A DNA stretch of 64,000 nucleotides from a plasmid. Both the position numbers and the translations under genes were made by a program. Location of the stretch: sequence record NZ_CP022047.2; one strand, 5' to 3'. The notes under the pieces are model-generated. The model saw nothing but the letters and a program-made list of their open reading frames with translations. It had not been told where the DNA came from and did not search any database. The first letter of the stretch is position 1. Every line of letters begins with the position of its first letter. This document shows positions 51,924-52,198 of this stretch, piece by piece.

Positions 51924-52019
51924 GTGACTATTACTTTTATTCATATCATTGCACCCATCATTTGTGGTTGTGCAATCGCGTACTTTTCTCATTGGCTGGA
52001 GAATCGTAGAAAAAAATAG
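51924..52019 (+). CDS. Fst/PepA1-like type I toxin peptide (MTITFIHIIAPIICGCAIAYFSHWLENRRKK, 31 aa)
   Basis: GTG start 7 nt after AGAGGGGAGGTG. Strong similarity, as I recall it, to S. aureus SprA1-encoded PepA1 (MLIFVHIIAPVISGCAIAFFSYWLSRRNTK). Followed by the hairpin at 52045-52081. Confidence 0.6.
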   Translation: MTITFIHIIAPIICGCAIAYFSHWLENRRKK

Positions 52020-52044
52020 GTGACATCAGATCAGCTAGCACCAT

Positions 52045-52081
52045 AAAAACCCCCTTACTACGCCACATAGTAAGGGGGTTT
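52045..52081 (+). terminator. terminator of the pepA1-like toxin mRNA / overlap zone for antisense RNA
   Basis: AAAAACCCCCTTACT-acgccacat-AGTAAGGGGGTTT. Confidence 0.5.
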
Positions 52082-52198
52082 GGTGTTTATCTATGACTAT
52101 TACTTTTATAAACATATTATAACACCTATGACATGCCGTGTCATTTGTTTAGAAAAAACTTAGTTGCTTGTTTAATAATTGGATTAGTTAATTTTAAA

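Follow-up and report, generated by a model that had tools for sequence, protein, structure and literature searches.

Fst-type loci and a related locus in Mammaliicoccus DNA

Fst-like type I toxin-antitoxin (TA) loci have been described on staphylococcal theta-replicating multiresistance plasmids (Weaver et al. 2009; Kwong, Jensen & Firth 2010), including pSK1 (Jensen et al. 2010; all cited in PMC4885055). Among related systems, SprA1 is located on a pathogenicity island of Staphylococcus aureus, and SprA2 in the core genome (PMC4885055, PMC6393315). Relatives of this type have convergent promoters, and the non-overlapping 5' domains of their RNAs pair at the ribosome-binding site (RBS) and start codon, with specificity for the cognate partner (PMC4885055, PMC6393315, PMC7472228). 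SprA1AS and SprA2AS have been established experimentally as cis-encoded antisense RNAs that act in trans through their non-overlapping 5' domain (PMC4885055, PMC6393315). Fst/Ldr family toxins have in common a hydrophobic transmembrane helix, a PXXXG(C) motif, a conserved Trp and a charged C-terminal tail (PMC7472228). Here we analyse a locus of similar organization at positions 51859 to 52144 of a 64,000-nucleotide stretch of a plasmid record (NZ_CP022047.2), called the window below; all positions are those of the window.

The locus is very probably a complete type I TA module of the par/Fst type, similar to SprA1/SprA1AS, on DNA resembling that of a large conjugative plasmid or integrative element of Mammaliicoccus. 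The module is of an ordinary, well-known type, and its toxin is already in public annotation within the same genus. Every in-silico feature of par/SprA1-type loci is present, or in the case of the 5' stem-loop predicted, except the U-turn loop motif. As judged from its sequence, the antitoxin RNA appears to follow the known pattern for Fst-type modules. No annotation of this RNA was seen in the public records examined, and a literature search found no paper naming Mammaliicoccus together with Fst or type I TA systems. The elements of the module are as follows.

51861-51869, plus strand: toxin promoter, an extended -10 box (TG-a-TATACT), read from the sequence
51876-52090, plus strand: predicted toxin mRNA (equivalent of RNA I or SprA1), ~215 nt, its 5' end placed from the -10 box and its 3' end from the terminator
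51876-51884, plus strand: 5' arm (GUCGCCUAU) of the upstream helix (5'-UH), pairing with AUAGGUGAC at 52016-52024 across the stop codon in the minimum free energy fold
51885-51909, plus strand: 5' stem-loop (5'-SL) beside the Shine-Dalgarno (SD) sequence, from the predicted fold
51911-51915, plus strand: SD sequence GGAGG, 8 nt upstream of the GTG start; GGAGGTG in all loci compared
51914-51940, plus strand: target site in the toxin mRNA, made up of copy 1 of direct repeat a (DRa), GGTGTTTAT (51914-51922), then AG, then copy 1 of direct repeat b (DRb), TGACTATTACTTTTAT (51925-51940)
51924-52019, plus strand: Fst-family toxin open reading frame (ORF) of 31 amino acids, from GTG at 51924 to TAG at 52017-52019, encoding (M)TITFIHIIAPIICGCAIAYFSHWLENRRKK
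52047-52081, both strands: bidirectional intrinsic terminator with a 14-bp stem, a 7-nt loop, an A-tract on one side and a T-tract on the other, common to both RNAs
52109-52041, minus strand: predicted antitoxin small RNA (sRNA; equivalent of RNA II or SprA1AS), ~68 nt, its ends inferred from promoter and terminator
52082-52109, minus strand: putative targeting domain of the antitoxin, made up of DRa copy 2, GGTGTTTAT (52082-52090), then CTA, then DRb copy 2, TGACTATTACTTTTAT (52094-52109)
52144 to 52116, minus strand: antitoxin promoter, -35 ATGACA, 17-nt spacer, TG and -10 TATAAT, with 11/12 consensus matches plus the TG extension

The toxin

An initial annotation of this DNA had proposed an intact Fst/PepA1-like type I toxin, and profile and structure comparisons bear this out. 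The peptide scores 57.2 bits against NCBIfam NF033608 (type_I_tox_Fst; cutoff 26, E = 1e-15), and PepA1 (PDB 4B19) is the only significant solved structure (E = 3e-10). In the alignments to PepA1 and Fst family members that the same annotation had recommended, 17/28 residues are identical to PepA1 locally and 20/31 in a gapped global alignment (61-65% identity over both alignments). The high similarity to PepA1 that it had emphasized is therefore present at 20/31 identical residues, but a plasmid-borne Fst peptide of S. cohnii is equally close (20/31). Hallmarks of the family include PIICGC (the PXXXGC motif) at residues 11-16, Trp24, the charged tail ENRRKK and a hydrophobic helix; hydropathy averages +1.62 over residues 1-25 and -3.97 over residues 26-31.

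The strong RBS and GTG start noted earlier are found as GGAGG at 51911-51915, 8 nt before the GTG at 51924, and homologues and the NCBI annotation use a start aligned with 51924. The GTG at 51915 was ruled out as an alternative start because it overlaps the SD sequence. An identical peptide is in RefSeq (WP_142390956.1, 'type I toxin-antitoxin system Fst family toxin [Mammaliicoccus]'), encoded on M. sciuri plasmid pk8D6P-cfr, and it is recorded on 15 contigs in all. Copies of the locus with 96% identity occur on two Mammaliicoccus plasmids; relative to the 96%-identical M. sciuri copy, the toxin ORF carries three substitutions, all synonymous. A six-frame motif scan of the window revealed no further intact Fst locus.

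The region bounded by the toxin and antitoxin -10 boxes (51859-52125) has ~70% DNA identity to 1402-1450 plasmid records in a plasmid BLAST search. Nearly all of these records are from Staphylococcus and, among the matches listed, nearly every one overlies a gene annotated 'type I toxin-antitoxin system Fst family toxin'. DNA homology to the staphylococcal plasmid loci starts at 51859.

The predicted antitoxin RNA and its direct repeats

Sequence corresponding to the toxin's own start region recurs after the terminator, as two exact direct repeats (DRa, 9 nt, and DRb, 16 nt). The first copies form the target site, which covers the end of the SD sequence, the start codon and codons 2-6. The repeated 'start' at 52093-52122 reads ATGACTATTACTTTTATAAACATATTATAA (ATGACTATTACTTTTATAAAC...TAA). 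The 16-mer TGACTATTACTTTTAT has just two exact copies in the 64 kb (51925 and 52094), and three matches with at most two mismatches are found in the window, against 0.34 expected.

We compared the window locus with 16 others, from Mammaliicoccus, S. cohnii, S. nepalensis, S. gallinarum, S. epidermidis, S. aureus, S. hominis, S. carnosus, S. lugdunensis, S. haemolyticus and Staphylococcus sp. AntiMn-1. The layout is identical in all 17 loci, and both promoters are conserved in position. The repeat is likewise present in all 17, has the same extent in each, and always ends at the predicted antitoxin transcription start. Its sequence varies by locus, yet it copies each locus's own initiation region. 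Accordingly matched pairs of antitoxin and toxin initiation region form predicted duplexes with a mean of -32.2 kcal/mol (range -27 to -37), against a mean of -12.9 kcal/mol for non-cognate pairs. A decaying gene fragment would not track its own initiation region in this way, which argues that the repeat is a maintained antisense targeting domain.

The initial annotation had read the repeat as a second, degenerate toxin start at 52097-52126. A repeat does exist, 4 nt further left than it had been placed (52093-52122), but it is a conserved direct repeat of the DRa/DRb type that tracks its own start region in 17/17 loci. The repeat after the terminator therefore appears to be the antitoxin's antisense targeting domain, and not a decayed toxin copy.

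The promoter at 52144 to 52116 is the best site in the region in a consensus scan, and its -10 box is kept as ATT[A/G]TAAC in 17/17 loci. The RNA predicted to arise from it folds at -29.8 kcal/mol (z = -5.1), with its first 24 nt unpaired and the remainder forming the terminator hairpin. Its duplex with the toxin initiation region, at -33.0 kcal/mol, was matched by 0/1000 shuffles. The interval 52020-52100, which had been suggested for an antisense-RNA search, does overlap this predicted antitoxin (~52041-52109).

These features suggest a regulatory mechanism. The toxin mRNA (~51876-52090) would encode the 31-amino acid membrane-active peptide, and the convergent minus-strand promoter would make the ~68-nt sRNA, with the terminator at 52047-52081 shared by this sRNA and the ~215-nt toxin mRNA. 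Because the 5' domain of the sRNA is antisense to a repeat of the toxin's own initiation region, it would pair with the toxin mRNA from the end of the SD sequence through the GTG to codons 2-6, and ribosome loading would be blocked. The 5'-UH, and the 5'-SL at the SD sequence, may keep the toxin mRNA stable and poorly translated until it is paired. If the element were lost, the labile antitoxin would decay first and toxin would be made, resulting in post-segregational killing. That both RNAs are transcribed, that translation is repressed, that the RNAs differ in stability and that the peptide is toxic is presumed here by analogy with pAD1 par, SprA1 and SprA2.

A palindrome, ATGACAtgccgTGTCAT, at 52130-52146 overlaps the antitoxin -35 box. 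It is specific to the Mammaliicoccus copies, whereas staphylococcal loci have TTGCAT. The palindrome could be an operator site.

Predicted structure of the toxin mRNA and the shared terminator

The toxin -10 box aligns with TGnTATAAT or TGnTATACT in 16/16 related loci, 5-7 nt upstream of a conserved GTCGCC. The predicted toxin mRNA folds at -70.3 kcal/mol (z = -4.6 versus shuffles). Helix covariation was scored on the aligned toxin-mRNA strand of the 17 loci. The nine pairs of the 5'-UH are 99.3% paired, and three of them have changes on both sides; the 5'-SL stems are 87-95% paired, also with three pairs changed on both sides. An alternative fold, in which CGCCU at the 5' end pairs with AGGUG of the SD sequence, competes with the 5'-UH. 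The SD-pairing arm is nearly invariant, and covariation is uninformative for this fold; the 5'-SL may sequester the SD sequence, as expected of par/Fst-type loci. As a model, the two 5' folds may be used in turn as transcription proceeds.

Downstream of the toxin gene, the initial annotation had pointed to a G/C-rich hairpin as the site where antisense RNAs overlap. It corresponds to a perfect 14-bp hairpin at 52047-52081, 27 nt after the stop codon. This terminator is 99.5% paired, with five pairs that show compensatory double changes. Over the whole structure 97% of alignment cells are paired, compared with 38-50% when the partners are slid, and 0/500 shuffles reach the observed values.

Observations at odds with a complete module

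Several observations weigh against reading the locus as a complete par/Fst-type module on plasmid-like DNA. The toxin promoter lacks a good -35 box (TTGCGT at 51843-51848 has a spacer of only 15 nt), and a simple consensus promoter scan did not report this promoter. The YUNR U-turn motif, from which the kissing complex of the two RNAs would start, is absent from both terminator loops (CGCCACA and UGUGGCG); the motif is not universal among family members (PMC7472228). Against Pfam PF13955 Fst_toxin the peptide scores 23.9, below the curated threshold of 36, and Pfam Ldr_toxin is likewise below its cutoff; because both are sub-threshold, family membership rests on NCBIfam and on PepA1 in the PDB. 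The window matches known plasmids only in patches (megablast against PLSDB), and therefore its status as a plasmid or integrative and conjugative element (ICE) rests on gene content. Finally, Rfam at its curated thresholds reports nothing in the TA region, and RF01797 fstAT reaches only 47.6 bits (E = 6e-7) against a gathering threshold of 72, at 51967-52065 on the minus strand.

The fstAT match raises the possibility that the antitoxin is the minus-strand RNA that this model outlines at 51967-52065, complementary to the 3' half of the toxin ORF. The model does match the equivalent position in nine staphylococcal plasmid loci, at 71-106 bits (eight above 72, the ninth at 71.3), and readthrough of the terminator from the promoter at 52144 would yield an fstAT-like RNA. 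However, the footprint is antisense to the 3' coding half of the toxin plus half of the terminator, and is offset from the antitoxin that promoter and repeat define. It begins inside the terminator hairpin with no promoter ahead of it, and many pairs of the model are non-canonical in the window. The conserved core of fstAT, AGCCAAUG, is the complement of conserved His-Trp-Leu codons, and coding conservation can explain the signal. Moreover, relatives that were mapped experimentally act through a non-overlapping 5' domain (PMC4885055, PMC6393315). We consider an antitoxin at the fstAT position very unlikely, and favor the RNA that would be transcribed from 52109 to 52041.

As a guide to placing the antitoxin, fstAT was rejected, given that its footprint is antisense to the 3' coding half of the toxin. 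The 3' part of another Rfam model, RF01822 RsaJ, matches the antitoxin -10 box, repeat and terminator below threshold, and looks like an Fst-type antitoxin. The boundaries of the fstAT and RsaJ families may deserve revision. With the fstAT match sub-threshold and its footprint off the predicted antitoxin, the regulatory RNA partner of the toxin was left unannotated.

A shadow ORF antisense to the toxin gene

An additional ORF overlaps the toxin gene on the opposite strand.

51759-51992, minus strand: spurious 77-amino acid shadow ORF, antisense to the toxin promoter, the 5' untranslated region (UTR) and the first two-thirds of the toxin ORF

Generic gene callers predict this ORF on raw assemblies, and it is intact in the 96%-identical Mammaliicoccus copies, as might be expected of a real protein overlapping the toxin gene. 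Nevertheless, the ORF has no Pfam or NCBIfam match, and homologues of it occur only in near-identical DNA. None of the homologous staphylococcal loci contains it; there, the longest ORFs with a start codon at the equivalent position are 15-30 amino acids long. Its only database occurrences are four unnamed automatic calls in near-identical DNA, and it is uncalled in the NCBI annotation. Against the 96%-identical M. sciuri copy, 7/8 nucleotide differences within it are non-synonymous, whereas the toxin frame has synonymous changes only. It also lacks a promoter or SD sequence of its own, and overlies conserved regulatory RNA elements. The likelihood that it encodes a protein is therefore close to negligible.

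The initial annotation had also called this ORF spurious, which agrees with our results, but had taken it to mark the antisense RNA region, and here the evidence points elsewhere: the predicted antitoxin gene lies on the opposite side of the toxin gene. In its fuller form, that proposal holds that an antisense regulator lies under the ORF at 51759-51992 and that 52093-52122 is a decayed second toxin start produced by duplication. The repeat does open with ATG and contains an exact 16-nt copy of the toxin start, and duplication of the start region is a possible origin for it. Its presence in 17/17 loci with the same extent, always with an early stop codon, always stopping at the antitoxin start and tracking its own initiation region, speaks against decay. 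In addition, the minus strand has no good promoter upstream of 51992 other than the strong site at 52144 to 52116, and the region of the 77-amino acid ORF is not conserved as an ORF elsewhere. This combination of antisense position and duplicated toxin start is largely refuted, and we regard it as extremely improbable. The ORF is a shadow ORF; it lies on the side of the toxin gene away from the antitoxin that we predict from the downstream promoter, and so does not mark it.

Gene calls on raw Logan assemblies list the 77-amino acid ORF and lack the toxin, which the NCBI annotation calls; it is plausible that the toxin was similarly missing from the ORF track of this DNA. The locus exemplifies small type I toxins that generic gene callers miss while calling a longer antisense shadow ORF instead.

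Toxin-less remnants of the module

A near-match at 20052 led to a further copy of part of the module.

19885-20106, no strand assigned: toxin-deleted remnant of the same module, in which a degenerate terminator, DRa/DRb and an antitoxin promoter directly adjoin a 121-bp 5' fragment of a Y-family polymerase gene

Positions 19885-20004 are 91% identical to 51626-51746, and 20005-20106 are 87% identical to 52048-52148. The 301 bp of the intact locus that the remnant lacks (51747-52047) are exactly the toxin promoter, UTR and ORF. The loop has the orientation (CGCCACA) of a deletion, which led us to reject an inversion between the polymerase start region and DRa as the origin of the remnant. The remnant's antitoxin promoter (-35 ATGACA, 17 nt, TG, -10 CATAAT) is still plausible, and its predicted RNA pairs with the intact toxin initiation region at -28.8 kcal/mol, with DRa buried in a lengthened hairpin of the RNA's own fold. 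The remnant may be an orphan antitoxin. M. sciuri plasmid pNW26-2 (2440-2710) carries a terminator, a DRa/DRb repeat and an antitoxin -10 box beside an IS257-truncated polymerase gene, with no recognisable toxin ORF, and this arrangement is probably another toxin-less remnant.

These remnants bear on whether the locus is a silent relic, whose elements look intact but which has no expression, toxicity or role in maintenance. They imply that the module decays in this lineage; the neighbouring polymerase gene has a premature stop, and the toxin promoter has no -35 box. Against this, all elements of the module are intact, 15 contigs encode the identical peptide although the DNA diverges by ~4%, with synonymous changes only, and complementarity between repeat and initiation region is preserved. 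The remnants themselves lend indirect support to function, because a working TA module decays only by loss of the toxin with the antitoxin kept. We judge a silent relic to be unlikely, and an intact module the better account of the locus.

A second type I TA module, rearranged and of the SprG/SprF (TxpA/RatA) type, lies at 19641-19926. There, a 50-amino acid ORF at 19774-19926 on the minus strand consists of 14 polymerase-derived codons fused to a PepG1/Hol_Tox-like toxin (Pfam Hol_Tox 25.6 against 23.3; NCBIfam PepG1 39-40 against 70). A sub-threshold Rfam RatA match at 19641-19729 on the plus strand is preceded by a TGTTATAAT box at 19636.

Genomic context and the neighbouring polymerase gene

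The window encodes a type IV secretion system coupling protein (2122-4641), a PriCT_1 replication-type protein (15401-16915) and ParA (24497-25291). It also carries LPXTG and serine-rich-repeat adhesin genes with GtfA/GtfB, and an icaADBC-like biofilm operon at ~59.7-63.2 kb, copies of which on M. sciuri and S. aureus plasmids show 94% identity. No tRNA genes were found in the window. This gene content fits a large conjugative plasmid or ICE of Mammaliicoccus. The module probably contributes to the stability of a mobile element of Mammaliicoccus with adhesin and ica biofilm genes. The 96%-identical copy on the cfr plasmid pk8D6P-cfr, which has an identical toxin, adjoins an aminoglycoside-resistance gene. 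Together with the adhesin/ica element, this copy gives the module a bearing on how resistance and virulence plasmids persist in Mammaliicoccus, a reservoir genus for staphylococci.

The toxin gene adjoins a Y-family polymerase gene on every Mammaliicoccus contig examined, and a TIR/SEFIR gene is adjacent on several. Homology between copies stops ~12 bp past the antitoxin -35 box (about 52157), so the right edge of the module corresponds to a recombination boundary. A 31-nt direct repeat with 90% identity (52172-52202 and 52218-52248) lies beside this end of homology. The 3' end of a 188-amino acid nucleotidyltransferase gene (Lnu/ANT(2'')-like, by weak matches) is duplicated just past its own stop codon.

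In the window, the polymerase gene (ImpB/MucB/UmuC-like; 50477-51745, minus strand) has one in-frame stop near 50888, which leaves ORFs of 284 and 129 amino acids. The gene is intact on other Mammaliicoccus contigs (419-420 amino acids, 97% identical). A 445-amino acid TIR/SEFIR-domain protein encoded at 49085-50422 on the minus strand adjoins the polymerase and the TA module; its gene is a possible defence gene.

The start region of the polymerase gene, GGTGTTTATC-ATG-TATGATTAC (51746 to 51726, minus strand), resembles DRa/DRb. The antitoxin 5' domain is complementary to the corresponding mRNA region, GGUGUUUAUC-AUG-UAUGAUUA, with 18 bp spanning the AUG and a duplex energy of -19 to -20 kcal/mol, and this pairing is equalled by 2/1000 shuffles and by 0/87 other gene starts. 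The antitoxin sRNA could, then, have the divergent Y-family (error-prone) polymerase mRNA as a second target. If so, it would in addition hold back a mutagenic polymerase carried on a plasmid, and the conserved TIR/SEFIR-polymerase-Fst synteny would have a function. However, the pairing reaches only -14.2 and -12.5 kcal/mol in commoner Mammaliicoccus variants, where the polymerase start is invariant and cognate toxin pairing is kept. Since the pairing is not maintained among variants, we judge regulation of the polymerase improbable. The pairing was probably not selected, and the observation is post hoc; the shared GGTGTTTAT may simply be an SD sequence with an AT-rich spacer.

Elsewhere in the window, a 2426-amino acid ORF at 37055-44335 on the plus strand is probably a serine-rich-repeat adhesin, judging by the flanking GtfA and GtfB genes. 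The 1767-amino acid ORF opposite it (38791-44094, minus strand) is most likely a shadow ORF that arises from the repeats.

Comparison with known systems

The founding member of the family, par of Enterococcus faecalis plasmid pAD1, has the same convergent promoters, bidirectional terminator, DRa/DRb and 5'-UH as the locus described here, a 5'-SL for which a counterpart is predicted here, and a toxin with PXXXG and a charged tail (PMC7472228). Unlike pAD1 par, our locus lacks a YUNR U-turn in its terminator loops, its toxin scores below the Pfam Fst_toxin threshold, and the toxin has Trp where pAD1 Fst has Val (PMC7472228). No detectable DNA similarity between the two is expected.

As in SprA1/SprA1AS and SprA2/SprA2AS, the two RNAs are predicted to converge and overlap at their 3' ends, with an antitoxin 5' domain complementary to the RBS and start codon of the toxin. 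Orthology with SprA1 would imply a near-identical PepA1 and a pathogenicity island, whereas the locus has 61-65% identity to PepA1 and a conjugative-plasmid-like Mammaliicoccus context. It probably works like SprA1/SprA1AS but is not its orthologue, and roles in haemolysis and stress response, as proposed for PepA1 and PepA2, should not be taken for granted here.

The closest relatives at the DNA level are the Fst loci of staphylococcal plasmids. These share ~70% DNA identity over the whole unit, are annotated by NCBI with NF033608 and have a similar plasmid-like setting. With the same spacing, they and the window locus have the extended -10 box, the GTCGCC 5' end, the 5' stem and GGAGGTG, then an ORF of 30-33 amino acids, and after it the post-stop GGCGAC, terminator, repeats and convergent TGnTATAAT. 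The window peptide is 45-65% identical to the staphylococcal peptides compared (14-20/31), the most diverged being that of S. haemolyticus (8/31). The window locus differs from these loci in its host genus, Mammaliicoccus, in its GTG start, in an extra Cys (CGC), in an antitoxin -35 box (ATGACA in place of TTGCAT) that lies within a palindrome, and in the sequence of its repeat and initiation region. It presumably has its own antitoxin specificity. Across the 17 loci, each Fst locus carries its own repeat 'address', which explains how several modules can coexist without cross-talk.

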